Shown here piece by piece: positions 10,635 to 64,000 of a DNA stretch of 64,000 nt. Within the stretch, counting starts at the first letter, position 1, and each line of letters opens with the position of its first letter. The translations under genes were made by a program, and so were the position numbers. A model generated the notes under the pieces. It was not told where the DNA came from and made no database searches. It saw nothing but the letters and a program-made list of their open reading frames with translations. Source of the DNA: a bacterium. Its GTDB lineage: Bacteria; Bacillota_I; Bacilli_A; RF39; UBA660. The stretch lies in the NCBI GenBank assembly GCA_030525085.1, contig JAUNFK010000001.1, positions 13,516 to 77,515 on the forward strand, written 5' to 3'.

Positions 10635-10636
10635 AT

Positions 10637-16028: not shown

Positions 16029-16062
16029 AATATCACCTACAAATTAATTATAACACAAACTA

Positions 16063-16117: not shown

Positions 16118-16130
16118 TGAAGGAGGAAAT

Positions 16131-16835: not shown

Positions 16836-16836
16836 T

Positions 16837-19062: not shown

Positions 19063-19115
19063 GCAAAGAACATAACCAAAAACCTAAAATTACATAAAAT
19101 ACACTAGAAAGGATA

Positions 19116-19388
19116 GTGTATTTTTTTATGTATAGATCTAATCGCTGCGTAGAAGAGGGCCCAGCTATGACTGCAACATTCCCAAAAGAAGCATGTGAAC
19201 CAATCTATGAATGCCCATGTGAAAGAGTTTGTCATAGAGAAATTAATCATGTAGTACCTCATATGCAACCAGTAAACACTAGAATAATCAACCATCATGT
19301 ATATCATCACACATACACTCCATGCTATACATGCTGTGAAGAAAACGAAATCACTCACGTATACGACTGCAATCCATGTGGTAAATAA
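19116..19388 (+). CDS. CotD-like Cys/His-rich spore coat protein candidate (start may be ATG 19128)
   Basis: 'HVVPHMQPVNTRIINHHVYHHTYTP' resembles the His-rich repeats of Bacillus CotD. A hairpin with a T-tract lies at about 19388-19412 on the plus strand. Confidence 0.5.
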   Translation: MYFFMYRSNRCVEEGPAMTATFPKEACEPIYECPCERVCHREINHVVPHMQPVNTRIINHHVYHHTYTPCYTCCEENEITHVYDCNPCGK

Positions 19389-46322: not shown

Positions 46323-46419
46323 AAGCTCACCGCCAATATTATTTTAACATAAAAAAGAGGAAAATTGTTTGAAAATGATATTTGTATATGCTATACTAGA
46401 CACAGGATAGGTGATATAT

Positions 46420-50100: not shown

Positions 50101-50498
50101 ACAGAGATGATTCCGGTGATTTAGGAAATAACTGGTCAAATCCAAAAGGTAAAGCAGCTGAGTCACGAATTAACGAGCTTGGTGCAAAAGATTCAACTTA
50201 CGATGATTACACAAAAGAAAATCTAGAATATAGATTTAAATTATCAACAAGTATGATGCAAGAAATTAAAAAATCAAATAAATCATCAAATTACTACGAT
50301 TTCAACTTACGTTGCAATGATTATGGTAAAGAATGTACAAGTTCATTTGTAACAGAATATGCAACAGATACAAGTGGCCGTAGTAAATATAAATATTATG
50401 TTAATGGACAATTTCAAGTTGGAACAATGGATAGCATTAGTGGACTAAATGGTAAGTATCCAGAACTGGAAGATTGTCCAGATAAGTTGTGTCCATAA
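47133..50498 (+). CDS. Large (1121 aa) secreted cysteine-rich protein, unknown function
   Basis: ATGA overlap with the upstream gene. The signal peptide is 'MKKVLVLILSIFTLTIGVNA'. I count about 29 Cys, many in close pairs ('GCC', 'CIYC', 'CLTC', 'CPDKLCP'). No LPXTG motif or TM anchor is present. Confidence 0.65.
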   Translation: MKKVLVLILSIFTLTIGVNADSNSGICAGKEMTGEGYCKLDSGVYIGRTSFDPSYNNLTNGDKAVYYNYNGTINEKQQNLYCIDANLTSPTGSSYNYARPLNPSNSSFDSMLARMYVSLVNAAVYDYNNGACSNLDSCFTKYLQAANVVMRALVTRQGYNIIPASDWGCSVGLQAGLEEYRNIYKQLEGLSYSGVALRQDGQYDLVKKWYKTASSTTKYDGSKYKITAELSHDEEIVTEFNGDNFTKIVPVKLGGLDDFREGYDTWKVTNPKVSITGFECTEGLTCTLETSKSNFNLNDNLIEKFSENEITFYVKVTGNIKQLKNKKKGLLTIKIDKYHILDTDNLAILRDYGTKSQGINEYSILGRRKICYQRMVALMPTTPQRVELEIDLEIPPYCKTDVSDSGDRIYKLGDTEVSIGDYINEGCCTDIDTSKLTDEEMEVFVANCGGEDIVDLKQECGAGSCEGHQGNIPGINIDSYVKQVSMDATMSKVYKWEKAYETDADEYGKLTKNNLQYWRDDEFASELENNNYCKIYTSEENHMYYPTTTTATSGRFFVFAQGSDGQYLQPYVDGKIYSTFHTAYKLWKKDYQEALTAEKEAFTTWQEAANLQDAIDDAIANKVNTKCDYTHDVSVKCEDGSDGCTETITEQIDTVYYKGSTQKTYYYGTYDENSIDPEDVEWYSNSNCDDYVAKPEDPQASTKKGLYETAKGKREDLEDQKTQCQDASKRYVSEWKYILEPDLTFHYNQKYYDSVSGQTKYLTEDITMVISDQAEKYFPNVSTRVTNPTSTSGSWKGVDYDKGEGDEYEGPIYGGGDFKVNEPFKDVDETDNENHNYTRNFEGIKLYYRPEKAYYSLVPTGLFKVSEEVLDAQNTIEIGYVFNVQITNYQGEYETWFTIKNNGHLEIEPSGSNKNQSNVQYRIDQYLEEHKSDFTDTSNGITSNAFSSKCIYCNREVIYERDCLTCEDDEDFKPKYIYRPINLTDIDPNNRDDSGDLGNNWSNPKGKAAESRINELGAKDSTYDDYTKENLEYRFKLSTSMMQEIKKSNKSSNYYDFNLRCNDYGKECTSSFVTEYATDTSGRSKYKYYVNGQFQVGTMDSISGLNGKYPELEDCPDKLCP

Positions 50499-50512
50499 GG
50501 GAGGTGTAGAAG

Positions 50513-51691
50513 ATGAAAGAAAGTCTTTGGGGTTATTGGTTAATTATACTAGGAATCTTTATTCTAAGTGTTATGCTTCTTTTACAAAACTACACCACAA
50601 CTAATGAACAAGACGTATACTTAATTAAAGAAATAACCGATGCGGCAATGGGTGACTCATTAGATTTAGCTCATTACCGTAAATACGGTGAAATAAGAAT
50701 TATTAAAGAAAAATTCGTTGAAAACTTTATTAGAAGATTTTCAGAGACTATAAATATTAATAAAAATTATGATATTTCATTTTATGATATTTATGAGGCT
50801 CCACCAAAAGTAAGTGTAAAAGTTGCAACTACAACTGGAGATATAACAATCGAAGGAACAACTGACTCTTACGCAGTAGTAAATAAATTAGATGCAATTT
50901 TAGAAGATTTAAGAACTCCAAATACACAGGAAGATAACTCATTCCCTAAAAATTACAAATGTACAAATTGTGAAATAAGTGATGATAATGCCAGAACCAC
51001 TTCACCAACTACAAAGAAAAACAATAGTGGAGAAAAGAAAAGCATAAAGCTAACATTTAATGGAATACAGCAAAATCCAAATCAAACATTTACATATAAC
51101 GGAACACAAATAAAAATGAGTTGTGCTTGTGGACCATTATCATTAGTTTCAATTATATCTTCAAAAGGTAAATCAAGTCAGTTAACAAATTATTTATCAA
51201 ATGGTGGATATAATACAAATAATATAACTGGTAGCGGTTCATCTGACCAAAAACTAGCTGCTGCAACATTCAAAAAAATGAGTGACATGGGACTTAATGG
51301 TCCAACAAATGGTAATGCAACAAGAGGAAGCACATGGTGTGGTTCAAATGGTAACTACACAAGTTCAAGCTTTGCGTCAATTGTTTCTAATTCTGGACTT
51401 TCAGTAACATCAAAAGGTGGCGGACTTAATGGAGGAAGAACAGGATTTGCTGATGATATCTATAATGCCCTAGATAGCGGATCACTAGTTATGGTTGCTT
51501 TGCCTTCAGGATATACAAAACAAGGTACAGGATTCGAAAGCACAAATGGCGGCCATTACATAGTAATATATGGCTATGACAAGGAAAAAAATACATTCTT
51601 ATTCTATGATGGATACAATGGAAGAGGTTTCCGCTCTGAATCTTGGGATGTAGTAAATTCAAGTGTAGTAGAATACATTGCAATTGGTTAA
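50513..51691 (+). CDS. Membrane-anchored protein with a C-terminal C39-like (papain-fold) peptidase domain
   Basis: GGGAGGTG RBS and N-terminal TM 'WGYWLIILGIFILSVMLLL'. The C-terminal domain has the Cys motif 'SCACGPLS' (nt 51121-51140) and 'GGHYIVIYGYD', as in Peptidase_C39_2-type domains. Confidence 0.55.
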   Translation: MKESLWGYWLIILGIFILSVMLLLQNYTTTNEQDVYLIKEITDAAMGDSLDLAHYRKYGEIRIIKEKFVENFIRRFSETININKNYDISFYDIYEAPPKVSVKVATTTGDITIEGTTDSYAVVNKLDAILEDLRTPNTQEDNSFPKNYKCTNCEISDDNARTTSPTTKKNNSGEKKSIKLTFNGIQQNPNQTFTYNGTQIKMSCACGPLSLVSIISSKGKSSQLTNYLSNGGYNTNNITGSGSSDQKLAAATFKKMSDMGLNGPTNGNATRGSTWCGSNGNYTSSSFASIVSNSGLSVTSKGGGLNGGRTGFADDIYNALDSGSLVMVALPSGYTKQGTGFESTNGGHYIVIYGYDKEKNTFLFYDGYNGRGFRSESWDVVNSSVVEYIAIG

Positions 51692-51696
51692 AATTT

Positions 51697-51724
51697 AAAA
51701 CTTGCTTAAATGCAAGTTTTTTTC
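51697..51724 (+). terminator. Intrinsic terminator separating the two accessory operons
   Basis: AAAACTTGC-ttaaat-GCAAGTTTT followed by a T-run. Confidence 0.7.
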
Positions 51725-51735
51725 TTTTGGAGTGC

Positions 51736-51764
51736 TTGAATTAAAAAAAAAATATTGTTATAAT
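51736..51764 (+). promoter_or_regulatory. Promoter of the cpaB/tadABC-like operon
   Basis: TTGAAT, 17-nt spacer, TATAAT, with an extended -10 TG (TGtTATAAT). Confidence 0.6.
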
Positions 51765-51801
51765 TAATTTATCATAGAGAAGAATAAAATGGAGGATTTA
51801 T

Positions 51802-52638
51802 ATGAACAATATTCTAGTTGGAATTAAAAGATTTTTAGGAAATAAAAACACAGTTACTATTATAGGTGTACTTGCTGGTATAGCAGTACTTTATATTGGT
51901 TATAACTGGCGTGTTAAACAAGCAATCGAACCAAAAAGTGTTCCTTATGCTAAACAAGAAATAGCTGCTAACACTCTTATAACAAGTGAAATGATTGGTA
52001 GTGTTAAAGTAAGTAAAAGTATGGTAGATTCAACAACTAACTTAGTTACAGCTAATAACCAAGTTGTTGGAAAATACGTATCATATGATACAACTATTCC
52101 AGAAGGAAGCTTATTTTATAAGAGCCAATTAATGACAGAAGAGCAATTACCAAACTATATTGTACGTAATATTCCAGAAGGATACACAGTATACAGTTTA
52201 GAAGTAAACTCACACTTAACATATGCTAATAGTATCATGCCAAACGATTATATTGACCTATACTTCAAAGCAATCGATGATGATAACAAAGTAATGTTTG
52301 CAAAAATGATTGAAAGTATCAAAGTAATTGCTGTAAAAGATTCAAGCGGTAAAAGCGTATTCTCATCAGAATCAAAAGATTCTCAACCAGCAGAATTAGT
52401 TTTCGCAGTACCAAATGATATGTTCTTACTTTTAAAGAAAGCAGATTATATTCGTAGTAACTCAATAGCTATTGTTCCAGTACCAAGAAATGCAAACTAC
52501 ACAGAAAATCCAAATGCAACTCAAGTAGCTAGTGAAGTTATTACAGACTTTATTCTTTCTAAAACAGCTTATATTCCTGATACTACAACAACTACAGGAG
52601 ACGGCACAAATAGTAATACAAATGAATCTGGAGAATAG
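51802..52638 (+). CDS. CpaB/RcpC-like pilus assembly protein (TM + SAF domain)
   Basis: N-terminal TM 'VTIIGVLAGIAVLYIGY', then a SAF-like stretch 'VPYAKQEIAANTLITSEMIGSVKV...VVGKYVSYDTTIPEGSLF'. Confidence 0.6.
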   Translation: MNNILVGIKRFLGNKNTVTIIGVLAGIAVLYIGYNWRVKQAIEPKSVPYAKQEIAANTLITSEMIGSVKVSKSMVDSTTNLVTANNQVVGKYVSYDTTIPEGSLFYKSQLMTEEQLPNYIVRNIPEGYTVYSLEVNSHLTYANSIMPNDYIDLYFKAIDDDNKVMFAKMIESIKVIAVKDSSGKSVFSSESKDSQPAELVFAVPNDMFLLLKKADYIRSNSIAIVPVPRNANYTENPNATQVASEVITDFILSKTAYIPDTTTTTGDGTNSNTNESGE

Positions 52639-52649
52639 AAGGTGGCAAA

Positions 52650-53777
52650 ATGACAGATGCTATATTTTCAGAGATAGATTTTGGACCCTTAAAAGAATTT
52701 TTAGAAGACGATAATGTAACCGACGTATCATATAGTAATGGTGGCCAGGTTTGGTTAAAAACTTTAGACAAAGGTGTTTATCAAGTAATTAGACCAGAAA
52801 TCAATAATCCGCTAATGGAAAAACTTGCTTTCCAATGTTCTAACGTAATGGGTAAAACATTTAACATGGCTCATCCATTTCTAGATGCTGAAAGTGCAGA
52901 ACTTCGTCTTAACTTTGTTCATGACAGTATTGCCACAAATGGAATTGCTTGCGTTATTCGTAAAACACCAGCAAAAATCCGTTTAAATAAAGACAAACTT
53001 CTAAACGAAAAATATTGTACACTTCAAGTACACGATTTCTTAATGAAATGTGTTGAAGGTCACTGCAATATTATCGTATCAGGAGAAACTGGTTCAGGTA
53101 AAACAGAACTTGTTAAATATTTAGCAAGTCATACTAAAGAAAACGAAAAAATAATAACAATAGAAGATACATTAGAACTTCACTTAGATAGAATTTTCCC
53201 AACAAGAGATATCGTTGCAATGAAAACAAATAACATTGCTTCATACTCAGACGTACTTGTTACTTGTATGCGTCAAAACCCAAAATGGATTTTACTATCA
53301 GAGGTTCGTAGTGCAGAAGCAGTTATGGCCGTACGTAACTCAATTTCATCTGGTCACAACATCTTATCAACAATCCATGCTGATAAAGCTGCAAGTATCC
53401 CAATGCGTATGTACTCACTACTAGAAACAAACCAAGATGTAAGCCAGTTCTTATCTACAATTCATAGATATGTTCAAATTGGTGTCTACGTTAAAGGTTA
53501 CATGAGTAAAGCTCTTGGCAGATTCCAACGTGAAATCATGGAAGTAACTGAGTTCTATGTAGATGAAAGTAATACACCATGCACTAATATCATTTATAAA
53601 AAAAGTATAGATGGAACATTTGCAATGAAAAATCCAACAAAATATCTTCTAGATTACTTATCAATTCAGGGAGTTGAGCTTCCTGCAGATACATTTAGAT
53701 TAGGAAATGTAAATAATGGGGGAGCCAATAATCAAGTCGACTTAAACGACCTTGAACTACCAAAAGCTGCAGCCTAA
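52650..53777 (+). CDS. TadA/CpaF-family secretion ATPase (T2SS/T4P/T4SS 'GspE' superfamily)
   Basis: Walker A 'VSGETGSGKTE' (nt 53082-53108), Walker B region 'PKWILLSEVRSAEA' and His box 'GHNILSTIHA'. Confidence 0.8.
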   Translation: MTDAIFSEIDFGPLKEFLEDDNVTDVSYSNGGQVWLKTLDKGVYQVIRPEINNPLMEKLAFQCSNVMGKTFNMAHPFLDAESAELRLNFVHDSIATNGIACVIRKTPAKIRLNKDKLLNEKYCTLQVHDFLMKCVEGHCNIIVSGETGSGKTELVKYLASHTKENEKIITIEDTLELHLDRIFPTRDIVAMKTNNIASYSDVLVTCMRQNPKWILLSEVRSAEAVMAVRNSISSGHNILSTIHADKAASIPMRMYSLLETNQDVSQFLSTIHRYVQIGVYVKGYMSKALGRFQREIMEVTEFYVDESNTPCTNIIYKKSIDGTFAMKNPTKYLLDYLSIQGVELPADTFRLGNVNNGGANNQVDLNDLELPKAAA

Positions 53778-53788
53778 GGAGGTGAATT

Positions 53789-54682
53789 ATGGAGTTAGTT
53801 CTATTATTATTAATTGCTTTATTCGTCATCTCATATCGTAAAAATGATGGTGAAAGTGTATATCAATTTATAGCAAAAGAAGTCACAGGACTTTATGATA
53901 AATATGCTCCATATAGTTTTAAAACAGTAAGAGAAAAATCAATCGAATTAGGAGAAGAATATACAACAAAGCAATATGTTACTCAAGTTGTTATATTTGG
54001 AGCAGCAGGGGCAGGAATCGCTTATCTATACTTCTATAGTATTATTTGGGCTATAGTATATGGAGTAGCAGCAATTGCATTTATTCCATATCTAGCATTC
54101 CTAAGATGTAAAAGAATTTATAGTGAGTTCTTATTCGAGCAAATTCAAGTATATACAACAAACGTTATCATGGAATTTAATACAACTCAATCCTTCGTTA
54201 AGGCTTTAGAAGGTGTAAGAGATTCCGGCGTATTAGAAAATCCTGTTCTAGATGACGTAAAACTTATGATAGATTTAAGTTACCAAAATGGTACAATTGA
54301 AGAATCAATTAACTATTTCAATCAAAAATATCCATACTATATGGTTAAAAATATGCATCAATTATTCTTACAAATCACAAGAGAAGGTGCAAAAGATTCA
54401 GGAGAATCTCTAGATAACATGTTATTAGATATCGATATGCTAGTTGAAGGTGTTTACCGTGATAAAATGGATAGAGACCAATATCACAAAAAATTCTTAA
54501 CATTCGGTTTTGCACTTTACTTATTAGTTATGCTTACTCAGTTCCTTCTAGGAACAGAAAGCTATATTTCAATGCTTGATAGATGGTATGTAGTGGTATT
54601 ACTCCATGGAATCATTTTAATAAATACTTACTTCTTATTAGATGGTGAAAAATACTATAACGAAAATACAGGAGGTGAGTAG
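53789..54682 (+). CDS. TadB-like (T2SSF-type) inner-membrane platform protein
   Basis: AGGAGGTGA RBS. TM, soluble helical domain and TM pair are laid out as expected for TadB. It lies directly after the ATPase gene. Confidence 0.55.
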   Translation: MELVLLLLIALFVISYRKNDGESVYQFIAKEVTGLYDKYAPYSFKTVREKSIELGEEYTTKQYVTQVVIFGAAGAGIAYLYFYSIIWAIVYGVAAIAFIPYLAFLRCKRIYSEFLFEQIQVYTTNVIMEFNTTQSFVKALEGVRDSGVLENPVLDDVKLMIDLSYQNGTIEESINYFNQKYPYYMVKNMHQLFLQITREGAKDSGESLDNMLLDIDMLVEGVYRDKMDRDQYHKKFLTFGFALYLLVMLTQFLLGTESYISMLDRWYVVVLLHGIILINTYFLLDGEKYYNENTGGE

Positions 54683-54684
54683 CG

Positions 54685-55479
54685 ATGATGATCGAAGTTA
54701 TGATACTTGGTATCATATTATATATAATTTTAGAGTACAATGGCAGCATTAGTACCAATAAATTTATTATGGACAACCAAGATATCTTTAAAAAACTAAA
54801 AGAAAAAGATTATGACTTCTATGCTAAAGCTAAATATGGTGATTCAATTGATGTAGAAGCCCTATTTAATGCAAGATTAAAAAATGGACTTATCGTTATA
54901 TTCCTATTAATATTTGCTTTTATCTCAAAGTTAAGCTACGTAAACTGTATATTTTCAGTAGTAGTTGGTTATGGTGTATATAAACTAAATTACCTTAAAC
55001 TTAAAAGACATTACAAAGCACACTTACATGAAATAGATGTTATGCTTCCATACTACTTAAAAAACTTAGAAATACTTGTACAACACTACACAGTACCAGT
55101 AGCACTAGGTAAATCAATCGATGAAGCACCACAAATATTCAGAAGTGGTCTTAATGAATTAATTGCAAAGATCAATGCTGGAGACTCAACAATCAACCCA
55201 TACATGGAATTTGCAAAAGACTTCCCAGTAAGAGATTCTATGCGTATGATGCGTTTGCTTTACAGACTTAGCTTAGGTAGTCAAGAAAGAAAACAAGAAC
55301 AATTATTAACTTTCTCAAGAAATATTTCTAACCTACAACAAAAAGCTCGTGAAACAAGATACAAAGAACGTTTAGAAAAGATGGAAAGTAAAACAATGGT
55401 AATGCTTATTTCAACCGGAGTAGGTGTAATGGTATTACTTATTATCTCAATCTTAATGCTATTTACAAGTAGCATGTAA
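54685..55479 (+). CDS. TadC-like (T2SSF-type) inner-membrane platform protein
   Basis: AGGAGGTGA RBS. The architecture matches the preceding gene. This is the second platform paralog, as in tadB-tadC pairs. Confidence 0.5.
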   Translation: MMIEVMILGIILYIILEYNGSISTNKFIMDNQDIFKKLKEKDYDFYAKAKYGDSIDVEALFNARLKNGLIVIFLLIFAFISKLSYVNCIFSVVVGYGVYKLNYLKLKRHYKAHLHEIDVMLPYYLKNLEILVQHYTVPVALGKSIDEAPQIFRSGLNELIAKINAGDSTINPYMEFAKDFPVRDSMRMMRLLYRLSLGSQERKQEQLLTFSRNISNLQQKARETRYKERLEKMESKTMVMLISTGVGVMVLLIISILMLFTSSM

Positions 55480-55530: not shown

Positions 55531-55559
55531 TTGACACATTAAATAAAATAATGTACAAT
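55531..55559 (+). promoter_or_regulatory. Near-consensus sigma-A promoter with no ORF behind it
   Basis: TTGACA (55531-55536), 17-nt spacer, TACAAT (55554-55559). An A/T-rich UP-like tract precedes it. Confidence 0.6.
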
Positions 55560-55562: not shown

Positions 55563-55786
55563 ATTGTCTAATAGTAAAGGGTATATATTAGAACAATGAT
55601 TTGTGTGTATTTTAAAGAAATGCATATAAAAAATGTACTTTTATATCAGACAATTAAAAGTAATATTTTTACCAAAATTAAAGTGTTACTTAGTCATTAA
55701 GATATAGGTATAATTGTCTTATATATACAAATAGCATAGAAGCTTTGAAATATAAGTCTTATCTGCGATAGACATAACAATTGTTA
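55563..55786. repeat. Dispersed AATTGTCT / AGACAATT motif copies plus the palindrome TAACAATTGTTA
   Basis: AATTGTCT occurs at 55563-55570 and 55712-55719. The inverted copy AGACAATT lies at 55648-55655. A 12-nt perfect palindrome lies at 55775-55786. Confidence 0.7.
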
Positions 55787-55897
55787 CGGAGAAAGAATAC
55801 TCCAAAAGATAAGTGGTAAATATAATACTGATAATGTTATATTGATCCATTCTTTAAAACTGGAACTAGTTATTTTATCAGAATAACTAGTTTTTTT
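55566..55897 (+). ncRNA. Candidate ~330-nt non-coding RNA of unknown class
   Basis: Bounded by the promoter at 55531-55559 and the terminator at 55864-55897. The track lists no ORF of 60 aa or more on either strand. Internal complementary segments are present. Family is unknown. Confidence 0.4.
55864..55897 (+). terminator. Strong intrinsic terminator of the candidate ncRNA
   Basis: An 11-bp perfect stem, AACTAGTTATT-ttatcag-AATAACTAGTT, runs into TTTTTTT. Confidence 0.8.
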
Positions 55898-55945: not shown

Positions 55946-55974
55946 TTGCAAAAAAAAACTAAGTTTGTTATAAT
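55946..55974 (+). promoter_or_regulatory. Promoter of the four-gene McrB-like operon
   Basis: TTGCAA, 17-nt spacer, TATAAT, with an extended -10 (TGtTATAAT). GAGGT RBS precedes ATG 56000. Confidence 0.6.
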
Positions 55975-55999
55975 TTTTAATAGAATAGAGGTAGGTTAG

Positions 56000-57136
56000 A
56001 TGATATGCGATTTATATGGTTCATATTTTAATTATAAAGTAAGAACATTAAACGAATATGCCTTGGCTCTAAGTAAAATAATAGGAATTAAAGATAACAA
56101 ACTATTTAGTAACCAAAGATTACGTAACGACTTCTGGCCATTTGTAATCAAAGACTATTTAAATAGATATACTGAATCTGTTCCACTAAATAAATACTTA
56201 GTAAAAGGTTTTTTAAATGAAAAAGAAATAACAAACTTTGACCTAGAAGAAGAAACAATGAGTATTATAAACTATCTTATTAAAAAGAACATTGTCCTAA
56301 AAATAGCTGAATACAAAGAAAGCATTATCCTAGCAAGTTTTATTTTAAAAATAGCAAATTACATTGATATTCTAACTAGTCCATTTACCAAAAATCAAAA
56401 CAACTATAGCACACTTTGTATAAGTGCTATCAATGAAGCAAACAAAGTAAAATATATTAGTTTAATAGACAATGGTAAAAAAGAAACAAATAACCTTTTA
56501 AATACAGTTAAAGAAAACGTTAAAAGAGAAAGAAAATTCTTTGAATCTTTAACTAATGTTAGCTCATTTAATAAATATATTGATATATCACAAGAAAACA
56601 TCTACTACTTAGCACAATATAACTATCGCATACCTAACTTAAATAAATATGATGAATACGCGGTAAAAGATATCTATGATAACCTAGGTGTAGATGATGC
56701 TTTCGCTCTTATTAGTGCAAATCTTATGGTAGCTAGTCTACTTAAACTATTCTCAATAAGAAAACCATTTAAGACATTATTCTTACCATTAAGAAAAAGC
56801 TTCTTAGATAATGAGAAAAACATTAAAGATTTAAGCCTACTATTTAAAGATAATAAATTACATAAAAATATTAAAATATTAATAAATTATGGCGAAGCAA
56901 CTAAAGAGATTATAAGCACACTTACAAGATACAAATTAGATTTCTACATTTACTGTAGTCGTAGTAGTGCAGCTACATCTGGAAAACTTATAGAAGACGC
57001 TAAGAATTACTTGGTTAGCAAAGAATTCTATGATAACAACAAGAATATTATATCTAAATGGAAAACCTTAGATATTAATATAATAAAAGAAGAGTTTGAT
57101 GGCATCGTAACAGACGCACGTCTGCTCATAGATTAG
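56000..57136 (+). CDS. Hypothetical cytoplasmic protein (gene 1 of operon)
   Basis: 378-aa ORF with no TM segment and no motif recognised. Confidence 0.55.
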   Translation: MICDLYGSYFNYKVRTLNEYALALSKIIGIKDNKLFSNQRLRNDFWPFVIKDYLNRYTESVPLNKYLVKGFLNEKEITNFDLEEETMSIINYLIKKNIVLKIAEYKESIILASFILKIANYIDILTSPFTKNQNNYSTLCISAINEANKVKYISLIDNGKKETNNLLNTVKENVKRERKFFESLTNVSSFNKYIDISQENIYYLAQYNYRIPNLNKYDEYAVKDIYDNLGVDDAFALISANLMVASLLKLFSIRKPFKTLFLPLRKSFLDNEKNIKDLSLLFKDNKLHKNIKILINYGEATKEIISTLTRYKLDFYIYCSRSSAATSGKLIEDAKNYLVSKEFYDNNKNIISKWKTLDINIIKEEFDGIVTDARLLID

Positions 57137-57152
57137 AAGGGAAGAGGAAAAT

Positions 57153-58652
57153 ATGGGAATTAACGGAGAGTTTTTTCTAAAATTTTTAGAGCCATTCTTT
57201 GGCGGACTAGTAGCATTTTTCAAAGCAATAGGTGCTGCACTAGTAAAAATATTTAATATTGCTACATACTTTGACATTATCAAAGAATATAAAGGAAAGG
57301 GAAGTAGCACAATAGTAATTATTCTAGGTGTACTTGCACTTATCATACTATTTGCTGTTATTGCACTATTAATATTCCTACTTGTTAGAAGAATAATTAA
57401 ATGGCGTCATAACGTAGCTCATCATGAAAAACTAGTTGAAGAAATTGAAAGCCTAAATAATGATGTAATTCGCCTAAGAAACGAAAATCAAAAATACATG
57501 GAAATGGCTGATCCTAATGCTGGCGTTGAATATGATGAAGATGGAAACATCACTAATAAACTTAGTGAAGGAGAAAGCAGATTCTTCAAACTTACTCAAA
57601 TTGATGAAAAATATAAAGACTATGTTGCTCCAGTGCTTAATGAAACAATTTCTCTAGAAGGTCTATGTGAAATGTTTAGAAACTACTCAGCTAGTCAAAT
57701 GAAACTATATTACTCAATAGATTTAATTAGATTATATATTGCATCATTTGCATCAAACAGATTAATTATTTTACAAGGTATTTCTGGTACAGGTAAAACA
57801 TCACTAGCATATGCATTTGGTAACTTCATCAAAAATGAAGCAGTTATCGCAAGTGTACAACCATCATGGAGAGATAGTACAGAACTATTTGGTTACTTCA
57901 ACGAATTTACAAAACGTTTCAATGAAACAGAAGTATTAACAAAAATGTATGAAGCAAAATACAATCCAAGCATTTTCATCACTCTATTAGATGAAATGAA
58001 CATCTCACGTGTTGAATACTACTTCGCACAAATGCTATCTATTCTAGAATTGCCTAGTACAGATGAATGGGTATTAGAACTAGTTCCAAACGCTTGGGAT
58101 AATGACCCTAAATTAATTGATAATGGACGTTTACAAATTCCAGATAACATGTGGTATATCGGTACAATCAATAACGATGACTCAACATTCATGATTACTG
58201 ATAAAGTATATGACCGTGCTATGCCAATCAACATTGATACTAAAGGAGTTGCTTTCGATGCCCCTAAAACTGATGCTCTAGACATCACCGCTAAATACTT
58301 CCTATCATTATTTGATAAAGCAAGAGCAGAGCACCCAGTAAGTAAAGAAACAATGGATAAAATAGCAAAAATGGATGACTATGTTATTGAACACTTCCGT
58401 TTAGCATTTGGTAATCGTATCGTAAAACAATTAAAAGACTTCGTCCCAGCATATATTGCTTGTGGTGGAGAAGAAATTGTTGCAGTAGACTACCTAATTG
58501 CAAATAAAATTTTAAGAAAATTTGACCAATTAAACTTAGCTTATATTCGTAATGAAATTGACGGATTTGAAGCTTACTTAGATGAATTATTTGGTGAAAA
58601 TAAAATGGTTGAATGTAAAGCATTCCTAGAAAGACTAAAAAAGACAATATAA
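57153..58652 (+). CDS. Membrane-tethered, coiled-coil McrB-like AAA+ GTPase (gene 2)
   Basis: Hydrophobic N-terminus including 'IVIILGVLALIILFAVIALLIFLLV' followed by 'RRIIKWRH', then the coiled coil 'EKLVEEIESLNNDVIRLRNENQKYMEM'. The rest is co-linear with E. coli McrB: 'LIILQGISGTGKTSLA' (Walker A, nt 57777-57800), 'LLDEMNISRVEYYFAQMLSILE' (Walker B, nt 57984-58001) and 'IPDNMWYIGTINNDDSTFMITDKVYDRA' (NxxD signature, nt 58161-58181). Confidence 0.7.
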   Translation: MGINGEFFLKFLEPFFGGLVAFFKAIGAALVKIFNIATYFDIIKEYKGKGSSTIVIILGVLALIILFAVIALLIFLLVRRIIKWRHNVAHHEKLVEEIESLNNDVIRLRNENQKYMEMADPNAGVEYDEDGNITNKLSEGESRFFKLTQIDEKYKDYVAPVLNETISLEGLCEMFRNYSASQMKLYYSIDLIRLYIASFASNRLIILQGISGTGKTSLAYAFGNFIKNEAVIASVQPSWRDSTELFGYFNEFTKRFNETEVLTKMYEAKYNPSIFITLLDEMNISRVEYYFAQMLSILELPSTDEWVLELVPNAWDNDPKLIDNGRLQIPDNMWYIGTINNDDSTFMITDKVYDRAMPINIDTKGVAFDAPKTDALDITAKYFLSLFDKARAEHPVSKETMDKIAKMDDYVIEHFRLAFGNRIVKQLKDFVPAYIACGGEEIVAVDYLIANKILRKFDQLNLAYIRNEIDGFEAYLDELFGENKMVECKAFLERLKKTI

Positions 58653-58674
58653 TAGAAAGTAAGGAGTTGTTACC

Positions 58675-59778
58675 ATGAATATGGATTTCAGTTTACTAGT
58701 AAAAGATATTCCAAAAGACGATTTAGAACTTTTCTTAAAAAAGACTAATGGTACTTTTACTGCTAAAAAAAATGTTAATAAAGTAGCTGTAGATTATGGA
58801 TGGGTTGATGTTCTTAATGAATCCATCCCTTATCTTGATAATATCATTCGTAATCCAAGAAGATTCATTGCTCAAGAAGAAGATATTATTCCTATTGAAA
58901 AAACTAAAAAAGTATCTGAAGAATCTATTAAACACTTAGCAACTCATACTCAGTTAATTCAAGAAGTAGACGATGATGGCACTGTAAAACCATTAAAACT
59001 ACTTAATATTTTTAAAGAAGAAACAATTGACCTTTATGAAAACAGATTTATCTATTCATTAATTACTAATCTTTATGTTTTCTTAAGAAACCAACTTACA
59101 TATCAAGAAGAAGAACAAGAAAACAAAGAAGAAAAAAGAATCACATATGAAGCAAGTACTAAAATGAATGGAGAAGACGTTAACTTCTCAATGAGCATTT
59201 CTGCTAATAAATTTGATACGACTAAAGAAGATCCTAAACTAGTTGAAGAACGTAATGAAAAAATCAAAAACATTAAAGATATTCTAGAAGGCTTTATGGC
59301 TAGCAAATTCATGAAAACCATGGCAAATGCAACCCCAGTTAGAAGTCCAATTAGAAAGACAAACGTTATCTTAAAAGAACAAAACTTCATTAAAGCTCTA
59401 GCACTTTGGGAATTCCTAGAAAAATATCAAATTGAAAAACCTATAAAAAGAGAAGAAGAAGAAACAGTTCTAAATTATAAAAACCTAGAAAAAAATCTTG
59501 GCGTTACATATTACATGAACTACAATCTTCTAGAAGATACTGTAAAAAGTGGCGGACAAGATAAAATGTCTTACGGAACAGATATTATCTCATCAGTAAG
59601 ACAATATGCAAGAAAGTTTAATGTAAACGAATTAGATTTAAAAAAGGAAATTGAAAAAGAAATAAAATTAGCAACAAAATACAAAGAAGAACAAATTACA
59701 AGTATTAAAGGAATATACAAAACATTCCTTGATAGTAATAAATCAAGATTTGATAAAGCAATCTCTATACTTAAATAG
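58675..59778 (+). CDS. Partner protein in the McrC position; possible DUF2357/McrC-N-like, no nuclease motif seen (gene 3)
   Basis: AAGGAG RBS. 'ETIDLYENRFIYSLITNL' resembles the ENRF-type motif of McrC-like N-terminal domains. The C-terminal half is charged and coiled, and I could not find a PD-(D/E)xK pattern in it. Confidence 0.4.
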   Translation: MNMDFSLLVKDIPKDDLELFLKKTNGTFTAKKNVNKVAVDYGWVDVLNESIPYLDNIIRNPRRFIAQEEDIIPIEKTKKVSEESIKHLATHTQLIQEVDDDGTVKPLKLLNIFKEETIDLYENRFIYSLITNLYVFLRNQLTYQEEEQENKEEKRITYEASTKMNGEDVNFSMSISANKFDTTKEDPKLVEERNEKIKNIKDILEGFMASKFMKTMANATPVRSPIRKTNVILKEQNFIKALALWEFLEKYQIEKPIKREEEETVLNYKNLEKNLGVTYYMNYNLLEDTVKSGGQDKMSYGTDIISSVRQYARKFNVNELDLKKEIEKEIKLATKYKEEQITSIKGIYKTFLDSNKSRFDKAISILK

Positions 59779-59790
59779 AAGGAGGCTCTT

Positions 59791-61074
59791 ATGAGTAAGA
59801 AAAAGAAAACTAATCCAATAATTGGCCAGTCACGAAAAGAAATCGATTTAGTTAAATTTAATGAACAAACTGATAAAGAGCAAAAAGAACAAATTCAACA
59901 AATACTAGAAGAAATATATGGTGAAAATCTTAAAATTGATCGCAAATACGTAATGAAAGTTTTAAGACTTACATGGAATCCTAAAGATGATTTTACATAC
60001 CTACCATATAACTTGAAAGTAACAAAAGATAAATTAACCCTATCTTTTGAAGTTGTAAAAAAGAAACCAGTGCCAATCGGTTTGCTAATATTTCTAATTT
60101 GGTTATTCTTCTTTGCATTAATCGGAGCTACATACTATGGAATTAAATATATTAGTTTAATTAATTTAAATAAAGATATAGATGGTGATGGTATAGCAGA
60201 TATTAACATCGACTTAGACGGAGATGGTAAAGCCGATATCAATATAGATACTAATGGTGATGATAAACCAGACTTAAATGTTGATTATAGACACAATCAA
60301 AAAGCAATCTTTAATATCGATACCGATAATGATGGCTTTGCAGATTATAATATAATTAATGATGCCACTGAAAATCCAAAAGAATGCCGAATAAACTGCG
60401 ACACAGATGGTGATGGATGGCCAGAGATCAATATCGATTTAGATGGTGATGGAGTTCCAGACACTAACATTGATACTGACAAAGATGGCATACCAGACTT
60501 AAACTTAGACTTAGATGGTGACGGGAAATGTGACCTTATGTGTGACACAGATGGCGATAACAAATGTGATGAAAACTGTATTAAACCAGAAGATGGTGTT
60601 ATAGATGATAAAGGTAATATAAATCCAGGAGATGCTACAACAGGGCAAACTGGTAATGGAGATGCTGGAGCAAATACTCCAACACTTATGATTAACTTTG
60701 TTGATGGTGGAAAACTGATTGTTGATAACTTATATCCAGATGATCAACCGGGAATGCCACCTTTATATCCAACTAAAGTATTCTACGTTGAAAATTTAAG
60801 TACAATCTCACTAAAATATACTTTAAAACTTCATATCGACACTAATACATTTACATCAAGTAACCTTAAATATAAAATAGATGGTACAAACGGCGGTGCA
60901 AGTTTAGGATATCAAACTGTTCCACAAGGTACTAGCTATATAGTAAGAGATGTTATTATTGCTCCAAGAGTAACACACAAATATACAATGACAATCAAAC
61001 TTCAAGGAACTGGAACTGCACAAGATGAAGATCAAGGTAAAGAATTTGAAGGAAAAATAGAGATCGAATTATAA
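59791..61074 (+). CDS. Single-pass membrane protein with Asp-rich calcium-binding repeats and a C-terminal beta-sandwich-like domain (gene 4)
   Basis: AAGGAGG RBS. TM 'VPIGLLIFLIWLFFFALIGATYYGI' is preceded by 'KKKP'. DxDxDG repeats occupy aa 129-261. The C-terminal stretch 'TLMINFVDGGKLIVDNLYPDD...KYTLKLHID...FEGKIEIEL' resembles the N-terminal module of the protein encoded at 30619. Confidence 0.6.
   Translation: MSKKKKTNPIIGQSRKEIDLVKFNEQTDKEQKEQIQQILEEIYGENLKIDRKYVMKVLRLTWNPKDDFTYLPYNLKVTKDKLTLSFEVVKKKPVPIGLLIFLIWLFFFALIGATYYGIKYISLINLNKDIDGDGIADINIDLDGDGKADINIDTNGDDKPDLNVDYRHNQKAIFNIDTDNDGFADYNIINDATENPKECRINCDTDGDGWPEINIDLDGDGVPDTNIDTDKDGIPDLNLDLDGDGKCDLMCDTDGDNKCDENCIKPEDGVIDDKGNINPGDATTGQTGNGDAGANTPTLMINFVDGGKLIVDNLYPDDQPGMPPLYPTKVFYVENLSTISLKYTLKLHIDTNTFTSSNLKYKIDGTNGGASLGYQTVPQGTSYIVRDVIIAPRVTHKYTMTIKLQGTGTAQDEDQGKEFEGKIEIEL
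60175..60573 (+). repeat. In-frame coding repeats D-x-D-x-D-G-x-x-D (thrombospondin type 3/dockerin-like Ca-binding loops)
   Basis: Units include 'DIDGDGIAD', 'DLDGDGKAD', 'DTNGDDKPD', 'DTDNDGFAD', 'DTDGDGWPE', 'DLDGDGVPD', 'DTDKDGIPD', 'DLDGDGKCD' and 'DTDGDNKCD'. Confidence 0.8.
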
Positions 61075-61093
61075 AGCACAATAGTGCTTTTTC
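61073..61093 (+). terminator. Intrinsic terminator ending the four-gene operon
   Basis: AAGCAC-aata-GTGCTT followed by a T-rich tract. Confidence 0.6.
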
Positions 61094-61111: not shown

Positions 61112-62044
61112 ATGAATAAAAAAATAGTAATAGCTTTAGGTGGTAATGCATTAGGAGGAACTCCTGAAGAACAAATGGAAAATGCTAAAATAACCGCAAA
61201 AAGCATCGTAAAAATCATTAAAACCGGCTACGATGTAGTAGTAAGCCATGGTAACGGTCCACAAGTTGGTATGATTGCTCTAGCTATGCACGCTGGAAAT
61301 GTAACTGAATCACTTCCGCAAATGCCTTTTGCAGAATGTGGTGCAATGAGTGAAGGTTACATCGGTTACCATCTAGGAAGAGCCATCAGTAAAGAATTAT
61401 ATATTAACAAAATAAAAAAGGACTGTGCATGTATTATCACAGAAGTAGAAGTAGATAAAAACGATGAAGCATTTAATAACCCAACAAAGCCAATCGGCCC
61501 ATTTTATACAAAAGAAGAAGCTGATAAAATAACTAAAGAAAAAGGCTATGTAATGGTAGAAGATGCTAAAAGAGGATATAGAAGAGTAGTACCATCACCA
61601 AATCCAATAAAAATTCTTGAACTAAATGCTATAAAAAAACTGATGAACCAAAATACCGTTGTAATTGCTTGCGGTGGAGGTGGCATTCCTGTAGTTCTTC
61701 AAAAAGGTGGCTACGCTGGAATAGATGCCGTAATTGATAAAGACATGACTTCATCACTTCTAGCAAAAAATCTTGATGCAAGCACGCTTCTAATACTAAC
61801 CACAGTACCAAAAGTATGCATTAACTATAAAACAGAAAACGAAAAAGAAATTACTCAAATGACATTAAAAGAAGCACAAGAGTACATAGATAATGGTGAG
61901 TTTGCTAAAGGTAGCATGCTACCAAAAGTAGAAGCCTGCATGAAATTTGTTGATAGGAAAGACAAAACTGCAATAATAACAAGCCTTGACGAAGCATTAA
62001 ATGCTCTACAAGGAAAAAATGGAACTAGAATCACTTTCGACTAG
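61112..62044 (+). CDS. arcC: Carbamate kinase
   Basis: 'IVIALGGNALG', 'VVSHGNGPQVG' and 'IACGGGGIPV'. Confidence 0.85.
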   Translation: MNKKIVIALGGNALGGTPEEQMENAKITAKSIVKIIKTGYDVVVSHGNGPQVGMIALAMHAGNVTESLPQMPFAECGAMSEGYIGYHLGRAISKELYINKIKKDCACIITEVEVDKNDEAFNNPTKPIGPFYTKEEADKITKEKGYVMVEDAKRGYRRVVPSPNPIKILELNAIKKLMNQNTVVIACGGGGIPVVLQKGGYAGIDAVIDKDMTSSLLAKNLDASTLLILTTVPKVCINYKTENEKEITQMTLKEAQEYIDNGEFAKGSMLPKVEACMKFVDRKDKTAIITSLDEALNALQGKNGTRITFD

Positions 62045-62993
62045 TTCCTTTTAATTTACCTAAAAAATACATTCCCATAGCAGAGCTCAATATAATTAAA
62101 TAATTTCTAACTAAAAAATCTATAACCTTATAACTATCTATCAAATAAAAACTTATCAAAACATAAAGGATCAAAATAACTATATAAAAAAATTTCTTTC
62201 CATATAATTTTACAATATTAAGTGAGCTAGTAACCGATGACTCAAACCCAACTATAATCCAAATCATAAATAAAATATTTTCTACATTATCTATAAAATT
62301 AAGTGCTGATATTCTCTTTAAAACAATATATTCAGGATACCTATAAAGTTCACTCATCTCAGGACCCAAATTCCCAAAAGTACACACTATTACAATAAGA
62401 AGGTTAATAGATGATAACAAATAACACTTAGAAGAATATTGCGCTTTAAAATTAGGCATTAAAAGTATTGGAAAAGCACTAGTAACAGCAAAGCTAATAC
62501 TTCCTAAAATTATCTTGCCAGCGCCATTAATTAAAACTGGTTTAAAAAAATCTAAATCCACACTAGGTGCAAGCATCCCAGCAGAGAAAATCATTAGAAT
62601 CATAAAAAATATAAATAAAACAAAGCTAGCTCTTAAAAAAGAATTTAAACCTTTCTTAACTGTATATAATACAAGTAAAATATTAGGTATCATTATAAAA
62701 TAAATAGGTGTATTAGATAAATAAATCGAAGAAATAAGTTTTGTCGTACTATAAAGTCCAAAAAAGAGAAGTATTATATTAGCTATTAAAGAAGTTATCT
62801 TAAAAGAATTTTCATTTAACTTACTAAATAAAAATAAAATAATATATCCAATAACCGTACCAATAATCCCGCATACCCATACATCTTCCTTAGCAAGATT
62901 AAGTATATTAGATAATCCAGCACCCATAAAAAGTCCAAAGGAAAGCATATACTGTAACACATTAAAATTATTTATCTTTTTCATATTCACCAC
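62031..62993 (-). CDS. Spore germination protein, GerAB/Ger(x)B-type permease-like subunit
   Basis: Polytopic membrane protein. It lies immediately downstream of, and overlaps, a Ger(x)C gene. Confidence 0.55.
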   Translation of the reverse strand: MVNMKKINNFNVLQYMLSFGLFMGAGLSNILNLAKEDVWVCGIIGTVIGYIILFLFSKLNENSFKITSLIANIILLFFGLYSTTKLISSIYLSNTPIYFIMIPNILLVLYTVKKGLNSFLRASFVLFIFFMILMIFSAGMLAPSVDLDFFKPVLINGAGKIILGSISFAVTSAFPILLMPNFKAQYSSKCYLLSSINLLIVIVCTFGNLGPEMSELYRYPEYIVLKRISALNFIDNVENILFMIWIIVGFESSVTSSLNIVKLYGKKFFYIVILILYVLISFYLIDSYKVIDFLVRNYLIILSSAMGMYFLGKLKGTSRK

Positions 62994-64000
62994 CCAATGA
63001 ATAAAATATAAGTCCCTTACGATTCAAACTAACATTAACTTCAATCTTGTATTTAATATCACTAATACTATCAAGTTTACTTCTTTTCTTATTATAATAA
63101 ATCTTTTTAAAACCTAAAACATCACTATCATTACTAACAAGCTTATCTAAAAAAGTTTTAGCCTCATCCGTTATTTTTTCTTCAGTTACTTTAATAATTT
63201 TATTAACCACTGCTTTATCATTTAAATCAATATCTTCCATTTCATCAAGTATCCCATTAACATCAAGCTTAATAATAAAGCCATCATCATAACTAATTTT
63301 AGACTCAACCTTCATCGCTTTAAAAGAATAGGCCTTATCATCCACACTTCCACTAAACAAATAAGACATATTATTATTTTTTAAAATATTATAAATTTGA
63401 ATATCTTTAAAATCTATAAGTTCTGTAACAGACTTTTCCTTAAATATAAGTGCTTTATCAATTAAATAATTATCATCACTAAAATAAGCATAAGGAATAA
63501 TAACATCATAATAAGGACTTAAATACTTCTGCAAAAAGGGAGTATACTTAGTTCTTACCACATTATTATAATCATCTTGTAAAATACCTTTAACATAATC
63601 CCCATATGACTCTTTATTACCTTGCATAAACCTTACACTATCTTTAAAATTATCATCACAAAGTATATAAAAATTTATTCCAACATTATTTTCTCTAGAT
63701 AAATAATCCATAATGCTATCTAACTTTTCTGCAGCGTTAGTACTAATTGCTAAAACATCAAGATCAATAAAATAAAGTGTCTTATCAACGATTAAACTTA
63801 TCTTTTGCAAAGCACTATTAAGACTCTTTCCATTATAACTATACAAAGTAGTTTCATTTTCACCATCCTTCGTATTATCTTTAATGACAACACTAACATC
63901 GTACTCATTATCCTTATAATCAATACCAATAGCAGAAACTACCGCAATATTATTAAGCTCCCTATAATTACTGCACCCACTAATAAATAAACAAAATATA
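62968..64000 (-). CDS. Ger(x)C-family spore germination lipoprotein (5' end beyond window)
   Basis: The listed start at 63846 is an internal TTG. The frame stays open to the window edge and reads 'IFCLFISGCSNYRELNNIAVVSAIGIDY', which is the lipobox plus the conserved Ger(x)C N-terminus. Confidence 0.7.
   Translation of the reverse strand, partial: IFCLFISGCSNYRELNNIAVVSAIGIDYKDNEYDVSVVIKDNTKDGENETTLYSYNGKSLNSALQKISLIVDKTLYFIDLDVLAISTNAAEKLDSIMDYLSRENNVGINFYILCDDNFKDSVRFMQGNKESYGDYVKGILQDDYNNVVRTKYTPFLQKYLSPYYDVIIPYAYFSDDNYLIDKALIFKEKSVTELIDFKDIQIYNILKNNNMSYLFSGSVDDKAYSFKAMKVESKISYDDGFIIKLDVNGILDEMEDIDLNDKAVVNKIIKVTEEKITDEAKTFLDKLVSNDSDVLGFKKIYYNKKRSKLDSISDIKYKIEVNVSLNRKGLIFYSLGGEYEKDK

Follow-up and report, generated by a model that had tools for sequence, protein, structure and literature searches.

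We describe here a locus of four genes on the forward strand of a 64,000-nucleotide stretch of DNA (hereafter "the window") from contig JAUNFK010000001.1 of a bacterium of the RF39 lineage. Genes 1 to 4 (positions 56000-57136, 57153-58652, 58675-59778 and 59791-61074) encode proteins of 378, 499, 367 and 427 amino acids (aa), respectively, and the second of them is a relative of McrB, the GTPase of McrBC, the textbook GTP-driven restriction enzyme. On balance, the locus is probably a four-gene variant of the CoCoPALM class of McrB-like systems, in which the McrB-type motor has been turned from the restriction of DNA to work at the membrane, and which acts as a conserved cellular machine rather than in restriction or abortive infection. 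What the individual parts are is considerably more secure than what the whole does. An initial annotation of this locus, made from the nucleotide sequence, had regarded the arrangement as undescribed and had offered two alternatives for its role, a membrane-acting anti-phage module and a GTP-driven envelope machine. The structural claims made there all check out, the claim of novelty is not sustained, and of the two alternatives it is the latter that we favor.

Proteins encoded by the four genes

The product of gene 2 aligns with the AAA+ domain of Escherichia coli McrB (PDB entries 6hz4, 6ut6 and 7vsr, E-values from 5e-4 to 1e-3), and the alignment takes in the Walker A motif, the Walker B motif (LLDEMN) and the asparagine signature motif. 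Walker A is represented by GISGTGKT (residues 209-216), in which K215 is indeed the lysine that the initial annotation had singled out, Walker B contributes D280 and E281, and the signature reads N340-N-D-D; all these motifs, including GT(I/A)NNDDSTF, are invariant among 120 homologs. The closest relatives outside the family itself are plasmid-encoded ATPases of about 800 aa from Deinococcus and Polaromonas (36-40% identity, E-values from 1e-44 to 1e-52), whose genes are followed by DUF2357 genes, and which share with gene 2 the motifs GISGTGKT, VQxxWRD, LDEMN and FGNR...FVP...GG. Taken alone, the NNDD sequence is ambiguous between the NxD and NxxD types of signature. However, GTINNDDST of gene 2 aligns column for column with GTANHDETT of these CoCoNuT-like plasmid ATPases, and we therefore read it as NxD. 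Among the profiles of the PADLOC collection of defense systems, PDC-M26A matches gene 2 (2e-40), via the ATPase core alone.

The first 190 residues of the gene 2 product are made up of hydrophobic helices, a coiled coil and a linker. In addition to a weaker hydrophobic segment (residues 15-38), there is a strong helix within residues 47-85 (Kyte-Doolittle mean of 3.6), directly followed by the sequence RRIIKWRH and by a coiled coil spanning approximately residues 88-125, the isolated fragment of which yields a coiled-coil-type Geminin match over residues 88-120 (E-value 0.003). This succession of an N-terminal helix, RRIIKWRH and a coiled coil indicates that the GTPase domain is located in the cytoplasm and tethered to the membrane. 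Judging from its sequence, gene 2 encodes an McrB-like AAA+ GTPase of the NxD branch, predicted to be held at the membrane by the N-terminal helix and the short coiled coil, in agreement with the initial assignment of this protein as McrB-like and membrane-anchored.

Gene 3 occupies the position of McrC, and its N-terminal domain belongs to the Pfam family DUF2357 (E-value 2.2e-8, 34.1 bits against the cut-off of 23.3), treated as the N-terminal domain of McrC by Bell et al. (PMC11090510). Pfam nuclease families match neither the full protein nor its isolated C-terminal fragment, and the alignment of 38 homologs (alignment A1) contains no conserved D...(D/E)xK pattern. In the AlphaFold model (pLDDT 75, pTM 0.47), the C-terminal half is mainly helical, with long helices spanning residues 121-147, 187-208 and 319-366, and a Foldseek search with this model of pTM 0.47 returned no match at E < 1e-3, to a nuclease or to McrC. 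Thus, gene 3 has kept the N-terminal domain of McrC and contains no nuclease, which bears out the earlier remark that a protein without the PD-(D/E)xK motif stands in the place of McrC. Neither gene 3 nor gene 1 encodes a membrane segment according to the hydrophobicity analysis.

The initial annotation found no recognizable motif in gene 1. This is correct at the level of sequence, at which gene 1 has no family match in Pfam, NCBIfam or PADLOC, and incorrect at the level of the fold. The AlphaFold model (pLDDT 87.7, pTM 0.87) is that of a soluble protein with a helical N-terminal domain (approximately residues 1-150), followed by a beta/alpha barrel of the EAL type (approximately residues 160-378). 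The best 50 Foldseek matches of this model in the PDB are all EAL domains, 47 of them at the probability of 1.00, with target-normalized TM-scores of 0.45-0.52, and they include both cyclic di-GMP (c-di-GMP) phosphodiesterases and the degenerate receptor FimX. A profile of the wider gene 1 family matches a designed TIM barrel in the PDB (2e-10), and three of the 57 family members match the Pfam EAL family, with the best E-value of 7.8e-4; EAL is the sole Pfam family matched by more than two members. As the tests at the sequence level gave only these three weak Pfam matches, we keep the EAL claim at the level of the fold. Among the 57 family members there is no conserved Glu residue at the position of the EAL motif in the beta-2 strand, so the domain is not expected to be a phosphodiesterase, and no invariant acidic cluster is found in the family. 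Hence, gene 1 is modeled as an EAL-type fold that is devoid of the catalytic residues. At 50% identity, this small, self-contained family forms 91 clusters among 1.84 billion representatives, and its unfragmented members are nearly all about 340-395 aa long.

A comparison with a more distant relative is instructive here. Loci from other genomes are designated below by the letter L and a number; L017 (positions 5832-18001 of a contig from an Erysipelotrichaceae metagenome-assembled genome, MAG) encodes homologs of gene 2 and gene 3 with 48% and 43% identity, respectively. Its first gene encodes a bona fide EAL protein, which matches the Pfam family above the threshold (4e-19) and is degenerate in comparison to YahA: EVL is replaced by NIY, DDFG by DQLE, K by R and EGVE by RYVN. 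The presence of a "dead" EAL domain in the first position, equivalent to that of gene 1, agrees with the fold assigned to gene 1 and suggests both that these systems have long included a subunit derived from an EAL domain and that they may be controlled by a nucleotide second messenger.

The product of gene 4 comprises a conserved N-terminus (residues 1-90), a single transmembrane helix (residues 91-119), a region with nine repeats of the DxDxDG type and six invariant Cys residues arranged as three CxxxC pairs (alignment A3), and a conserved, beta-rich C-terminal domain of about 125 aa. The membrane anchoring of both gene 2 and gene 4 is predicted from hydrophobicity and the positive-inside rule, which place the N-terminus of gene 4 in the cytoplasm and the repeats and the beta-rich domain outside the cell; the protein should therefore span the membrane once and carry an ectodomain, as had been claimed. 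Pfam searches returned only sub-threshold chance matches for gene 4, PADLOC gave none, and a profile search of the PDB gave none that was significant. We take the Cys-flanked DxDxDG loops to resemble the calcium-binding thrombospondin type-3 repeats, a likeness that no database match confirms. The possibility that the C-terminal domain is a fiber domain similar to TasA or camelysin was considered and rejected, since neither hhalign (probability 0.4%) nor BLASTP against the 197-aa candidate fiber subunits of L001 and L010, nor the profile search of the PDB, yielded any support for it.

Relationship to CoCoPALM and other known systems

The arrangement is not undescribed. The initial annotation had itself listed a match to an already named system as grounds for abandoning its claim, and such a class exists: Bell et al. 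(eLife 2024; PMC11090510, section 7) introduced in a single paragraph the CoCoPALM group, a large clade of McrB GTPases with the NxD motif, in which the signature is usually followed by D or E. According to these authors, the GTPases are fused to a module composed of a transmembrane segment and a coiled coil, which they called FtsB-like, are paired with McrC homologs, associate with proteins of the signal peptidase family, and are linked to pilus assembly (PMC11090510). A fuller treatment was deferred by the authors to a later paper (PMC11090510), and our literature search found no such follow-up. The text of PMC11090510 mentions neither EAL domains, nor c-di-GMP, nor calcium, and counterparts of genes 1 and 4 are likewise absent from it.

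Gene 2 belongs to the NxD branch, with E. coli McrB matching it only at an E-value of 5e-4, and carries a transmembrane helix and a coiled coil on the N-terminal side of the GTPase domain; gene 3, which is adjacent, encodes a DUF2357 McrC homolog with helical and coiled regions, a partner that in this class usually contains a coiled coil. The neighbors of the relatives point in the same direction, as at 48-76% identity to the window the homologs adjoin genes of signal peptidases and candidate fiber subunits (L017, L001 and L019). In L017 the order of genes is: EAL protein, unknown protein of 351 aa, candidate fiber subunit, signal-peptidase-like protein, McrB-like protein (525 aa), McrC-like protein (540 aa) and a second signal-peptidase-like protein. 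The McrC-like protein has a long, charged, helical or coiled-coil tail, and both signal-peptidase-like proteins have C-terminal transmembrane helices and charged tails. Only the EAL and DUF2357 domains of L017 exceed the Pfam thresholds, and the labels of the peptidase-like and fiber proteins are based on motifs and on a very weak match to Peptidase_S26 (E-value 0.08). L017 is a typical CoCoPALM locus. It also contains, inserted within the cluster, an AAA_21 (AbiEii-like) gene and a gene encoding a 176-aa protein, which may form a separate defense pair. In L001 and L010, gene 4 is directly followed by genes of two 197-aa proteins with very weak camelysin-like matches, of a 385-aa protein with a sub-threshold match to Peptidase_S26 (E-value 5e-4), and of a DUF5305 protein, while in L019 the precomputed annotation places Peptidase_S26 two genes downstream.

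From the alignment of the NxD signature, the anchor with the coiled coil, the DUF2357 partner and the neighbors of the relatives, we assign the core formed by genes 2 and 3 to the CoCoPALM clade. The four-gene form seen in the window is without one of the defining associations of the class, the signal peptidase, and adds genes 1 and 4 to it. Unlike the published form, it has neither a signal peptidase nor a fiber subunit and is instead adjacent to a Tad-like pilus cluster, it includes an obligatory EAL-like gene 1 and a gene 4 with the DxDxDG repeats, and it is linked to a structured RNA encoded upstream.

With the classical McrBC of E. coli (6hz4, 6ut6), the locus shares the AAA+ GTPase core with the Walker A, Walker B and asparagine signature motifs, as well as a partner that has the N-terminal domain of McrC, which in McrBC plugs the hexamer and stimulates the hydrolysis of GTP. 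However, gene 2 has a membrane anchor in place of the DNA-binding N-terminal domain, its partner lacks the PD-(D/E)xK nuclease, the signature has the NxD(+D) rather than the NxxD context, and the genes form a four-gene operon in the core chromosomal set rather than a part of a mobile defense island. The GTPase domains closest to gene 2, with 36-40% identity and shared motifs, are those of the CoCoNuT systems (CnuB/CnuC; PMC11090510) and of PDC-M26. Here too the difference is considerable, as CoCoNuTs are soluble systems with long coiled coils and without exception include a nuclease (HEPN, PD-(D/E)xK or PLD) together with helicase genes, none of which occurs in the present locus; in particular, none of the four proteins matches a nuclease in Pfam, NCBIfam or PADLOC. 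PADLOC recovers no named defense system in the locus: apart from the PDC-M26A match to the ATPase core of gene 2, there is no match for genes 1, 3 and 4, and no other component of the PDC-M26 system is found.

A different kind of comparison is offered by the machines of surface structures. It is known that degenerate EAL domains can serve as c-di-GMP receptors and gate such machines, FimX together with PilB and LapD together with LapG. Similarly to the FimX-PilZ-PilB system of type IV pili and the LapD-LapG-LapA system, gene 1 is modeled as an EAL barrel devoid of catalytic residues, with FimX among its Foldseek matches, and is encoded together with an NTPase motor and an external protein with calcium-type repeats, beside a pilus cluster. 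On the other hand, gene 1 has no EAL signal at the sequence level, no GGDEF or PilZ partner is seen, and the motor would be a GTPase of the McrB type rather than an ATPase of the PilB type. We regard this comparison as an analogy of logic, and not as homology of systems.

Transcription units, conservation and neighborhood

The four open reading frames (ORFs) lie on the same strand at distances of only 16, 22 and 12 nucleotides (nt) from each other, and each is preceded, 5-9 nt ahead of the start codon, by a purine-rich Shine-Dalgarno site (GAGGTAGG, GGGAAGAGG, AAGGAG and GAAGGAGG, respectively). The operon promoter (55946-55974, forward strand; TTGCAA-17-(TG)TATAAT, with the TG extension of the -10 element) was located both by a consensus scan and by an alignment of seven species. 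The scan by itself says little about promoters in this DNA, as consensus matches are not enriched in the window (36 found, against 45.7 expected from the shuffled sequence). However, the -35 element, the extended -10 element and the leader GAATAGAGGTAGGT are invariant in the upstream alignment of the seven species, which share only about 40% identity at the level of the gene 1 protein, and 16 of the 20 loci compared have the promoter pattern directly 5' of gene 1. Therefore, we consider the promoter to be real and to enjoy good phylogenetic support. At the other end, a terminator-like hairpin (61073-61090, forward strand; 7 pairs, of which 3 are G-C) overlaps the stop codon of gene 4 and is followed by a weak T-tail, TTCTCTT. 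In comparisons with three sister species, the dN/dS ratio is 0.03-0.09 for all four genes, which indicates strong purifying selection and identifies the ORFs as real genes. The G+C content of the operon matches that of its flanks and there is no compositional island.

Homologs of gene 2 with a length of about 500 aa and 60-94% identity number in the thousands, and those few whose source is named are from MAGs described as uncultured "Bacilli bacterium". Among species-representative genomes, a scan returned 13 loci, labeled as uncultured Tenericutes, Bacilli or Erysipelotrichaceae; the order gene 1-2-3-4 is kept in all 12 of them in which the four genes are detectable, and the thirteenth is L017. 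The same order is found in further contigs reached via distant homologs of gene 2 and gene 3, which brings the total to more than 25 loci from other species. Many genomes thus contain the four genes in a conserved order, a point on which the initial annotation had made its reading depend. At the distant end of the set, the four proteins retain 25-40% (gene 1), 60-67% (gene 2), 42-52% (gene 3) and 37-54% (gene 4) identity to those of the window. Where the neighboring carbamate kinase is 67-86% and GerAB 47-63% identical, the identity of gene 2 is 88-95% (67%, 47% and 88%, respectively, in L008). One of the loci with the whole Bacilli-type operon, L013 (CAVIQT010000004.1, gene 2 73% identical), is labeled as Phocaeicola vulgatus, and this contig has probably been mis-binned in its assembly.

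The flanks vary with the lineage. In the window and its close relatives, one flank is formed by the Tad-like pilus cluster, which in the window lies directly 5' of the operon region (46411-55479, forward strand) and comprises unknown proteins of 241 and 1121 aa, a DUF5411+Peptidase_C39_2 protein (392 aa), an RcpC/CpaB-like protein (278 aa), an ATPase of the T2SSE/CpaF type (375 aa) and two polytopic TadB/TadC-like proteins. In L004, the leading part of this cluster (Metallophos, Rce1-like and 241-aa unknown proteins) lies downstream of the module, which makes for two arrangements of the neighbors. Other lineages have division and cell-wall (dcw) genes next to the module, either MraZ-RsmH-FtsL-like-PBP (PBP: penicillin-binding protein; L019, L023) or PrsA-PBP-MraY-FtsW (L022), some have secretion ATPases of the VirD4-like, DUF87 or EssC-like types, and some have plain housekeeping genes (RNase Y, DnaE, rpsB, tsf). 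No other defense gene, integrase or transposase occurs among the Pfam-annotated neighbors, and tblastn searches of 72,556 plasmids and 50,697 phages revealed no full-length homolog, only matches to the ATPase core. The four genes are thus co-inherited in a fixed order, under purifying selection, in chromosomal neighborhoods of housekeeping, cell-wall and pilus genes.

Several other features of these neighborhoods deserve mention. Downstream of the operon, the window contains a carbamate kinase gene (forward strand) and the spore germination genes GerAB and GerAC (reverse strand) at 61112-63846; because of the latter, the host, labeled "uncultured Tenericutes", appears to be a walled spore-former. 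Genes of FtsW, a Mur ligase and other wall proteins are located within the window, FtsW 11 kb upstream of the operon. A coupling protein of the VirD4/TraG type (T4SS-DNA_transf, 3.9e-54) is encoded in the window (1256-3601, forward strand), in L004 (4472-6772) and in L024 (1787-3964); it is kept at 65% identity in a chromosomal housekeeping setting, and both L004 and L024 have it a few kb 5' of the module. In L024, gene 4 is followed immediately by a 1538-aa FtsK_SpoIIIE (EssC-like) gene and by several genes encoding 84-107 aa, which together look like a type VII secretion locus. L020, a contig of gut Bacilli, encodes an OLE (ornate large extremophilic) RNA (18814-19290, reverse strand, 221 bits) a few kb from the module.

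The 520-nt gap 5' of gene 1 contains, in this order, a promoter for an RNA, the PGK RNA motif, the terminator of this RNA and the promoter of the operon. The promoter-like site of the RNA (55531-55559, forward strand; TTGACA-17-TACAAT, 11 of 12 consensus positions) is strong, and its -35 and -10 elements, together with the ATTGTCTA(A/G) block that follows, are conserved in related loci (alignment A4). The PGK motif itself (Rfam RF03040; 55751-55841, forward strand) matches the full-length model at 79.7 bits, with the gathering threshold at 50.8, and appears to be the 3' part of an RNA of about 340 nt (approximately 55566-55897) that is syntenic with the operon. The RNA ends with an unusually conserved intrinsic terminator (55864-55897, forward strand), AACTAGTTATT-TTATCAG-AATAACTAGTT followed by seven T residues. 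Across seven species, compensatory changes occur in its stem, whereas its loop does not vary. The sequence of this loop, TTATCAG (55875-55881), and that of the PGK hairpin loop, CTGATAA (55828-55834), which is invariant as well, are exact reverse complements of each other; the complementarity suggests that the two loops may contact each other.

In most lineages the RNA closely precedes the operon: the motif, or its conserved core together with the terminator, is found 5' of gene 1 in the window, L001-L003, L005-L013, L015 and L016, whatever the upstream neighbor. Conversely, a metagenome scan with the RNA pattern only returned 11 loci, and gene 1 is located downstream on the same strand in all eight that can be assessed. 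The RNA occurs at 8588-8775 in L001, 8634-8766 in L005, 172-304 in L008, 8601-8788 in L011, 8570-8756 in L012 and 5201-5376 in L020, and also in L025-L035. Such searches were made with exact patterns because our covariance model R1 (spanning 55752-55897) missed its own training sequences from L001, L005 and L020, all of very AT-rich DNA, under the default filters of cmsearch, whereas the patterns recovered them. The PGK motif is reportedly placed by Rfam in unclassified gut metagenomes, upstream of phosphoglycerate kinase genes; a literature search for a description of this RNA found nothing, and in the loci examined the pgk gene is never adjacent to it. In one sub-lineage (L020 type), the RNA and gene 1 are separated by an acyltransferase gene, by a ClpB-like gene or by both, and gene 1 of L020 keeps its own promoter despite the insertion. 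In L028, the TTGACA/TATAAT promoter of the inserted ClpB-like gene is overlapped by a CIRCE-like HrcA operator (1925-1985, forward strand; TTAGCACTC-N9-AAGTGCTAA). The view that the PGK RNA acts in cis, as the leader of gene 1, was rejected on the grounds of these insertions and of the conserved promoter between the terminator and gene 1. Since the inserted ClpB-like gene in L028 and gene 1 in L020 each have promoters of their own, we regard the RNA as a separate transcription unit.

Possible functions of the locus

It is tempting to consider how such a conserved cellular machine could operate. By analogy with McrBC, gene 2 would form a hexameric ring under the membrane, and the N-terminal domain of gene 3 would plug this ring and stimulate the hydrolysis of GTP. 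By analogy with FimX and LapD, gene 1 could sense a nucleotide or serve as an adaptor, and in this way gate the motor or act as its scaffold. The cytoplasmic N-terminal domain of gene 4 may couple the motor to the ectodomain, such that the turnover of GTP inside the cell would control the assembly, anchoring or remodeling of a structure outside, be it a pilus or fiber, or else the wall or the septum. In its most explicit version, in which a membrane GTPase ring gated by a dead EAL domain acts via a bitopic calcium-repeat protein on a filament or on the wall, with the upstream PGK RNA as a dedicated component or regulator, this scenario is rather unlikely to be correct as a whole.

A number of observations weigh against the proposal of a CoCoPALM-type envelope machine. 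The association with a signal peptidase is not seen in the 64-kb window, where tblastn searches with the S26-type, candidate fiber-subunit and DUF5305 proteins of the relatives gave only E-values above 0.1. Neither Pfam nor NCBIfam detects DivIC or FtsB in the N-terminus of gene 2, even with the isolated fragment and E-values up to 10, in a check made by HMMER only, for which short modules of this type are hard targets. The EAL assignment of gene 1 is a modeled one, made at the level of the fold with TM-scores of about 0.45-0.52: neither gene 1 nor its close relatives (26 family members) match Pfam EAL above the threshold, hhalign comparisons of gene 1 with E. coli PdeH and with the EAL protein of L017 are not significant, phmmer searches of the gene 1 family with PdeH and PdeK lend no support for EAL at the sequence level, and searches of the PDB by phmmer and, with two profiles, by hmmsearch give no proof of it. 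Moreover, no GGDEF motif is seen in the approximately 600 kb of sequence examined, a small part of these genomes, and for this reason c-di-GMP as the ligand of gene 1 is speculative. Finally, the function is deduced from architecture and neighborhood alone, the links with the neighbors could reflect conserved synteny of a narrow lineage rather than function, and the McrBC ancestry, the PADLOC match and the AAA_21 pair of L017 make a role in defense possible.

This role would be that of an anti-phage module, in which a membrane-sited derivative of McrBC senses the phage at the envelope or the pilus and blocks its entry or kills the cell by GTP-driven action on the membrane. Such a reading, to which we assign a low but appreciable probability, builds on the ancestry of gene 2, on its PDC-M26A match (2e-40), and on its nearest relatives outside the family, which come from CoCoNuT-like systems of plasmids with a predicted role in defense; pili serve as phage receptors and the locus lies beside a Tad-like cluster, and a pair of genes with an AAA_21-type member is found within the cluster of L017. 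Sensing could then proceed through the ectodomain of gene 4 or through incoming nucleic acid. However, neither a nuclease nor another effector is recognizable by Pfam, AlphaFold or Foldseek, and PADLOC matches the ATPase core of gene 2 and none of the remaining genes. Conservation and context also weigh against this reading: the dN/dS values are 0.03-0.09 and gene 2 is better conserved than its metabolic neighbors, the gene order, the promoter and the leader are fixed across species, the flanks are housekeeping genes with no defense genes, integrases or transposases among those annotated by Pfam and no compositional island, and no full-length copy exists in the plasmids or phages searched. For these reasons we consider this the weaker of the two alternatives of the initial annotation.

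The machine could also serve cell division or the cell wall rather than a pilus or a fiber, with the tethered GTPase working together with the divisome or the elongasome. The module stands directly after MraZ-RsmH-FtsL-like-PBP in L019 and L023 and before PrsA-PBP-MraY-FtsW in L022, a PBP gene is found near it in L001 and L020, FtsW lies 11 kb upstream in the window, and the N-terminal module of gene 2 is FtsB-like according to PMC11090510. Nevertheless, we find this quite improbable, because Pfam does not detect FtsB/DivIC in gene 2, whose coiled coil, in contrast to the one in FtsB, has to lie in the cytoplasm; in addition, the neighbors of the module in other lineages are pilus, secretion, signal-peptidase or unrelated housekeeping genes, and the adjacency to the wall genes may be inherited synteny. 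What can be dismissed almost completely is a soluble type IV restriction enzyme of the ordinary McrBC kind, accompanied by two unrelated neighbors. It is true that gene 2 aligns with the AAA+ domain of McrB and that gene 3 has the N-terminal domain of McrC, but this reading is refuted by the membrane helix and the missing DNA-binding N-domain of gene 2, by the missing PD-(D/E)xK domain of gene 3, and by the co-conservation of all four genes, which share a single promoter and terminator; the initial annotation, too, had not seen an ordinary McrBC here.

If the proposal of an envelope machine is true, then the loss of the nuclease, the move to the membrane and the establishment as a strictly conserved housekeeping operon would make this clade of McrBC a clear example of how a defense motor can be recruited to the biology of the cell envelope. 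To the published paragraph on CoCoPALM, the present analysis adds a defined four-gene core, a first gene with the EAL fold, an external partner that carries repeats of the calcium type, and a genomic context for the orphan PGK RNA. The hosts of this system are abundant, uncultured Bacilli of the human and animal gut.

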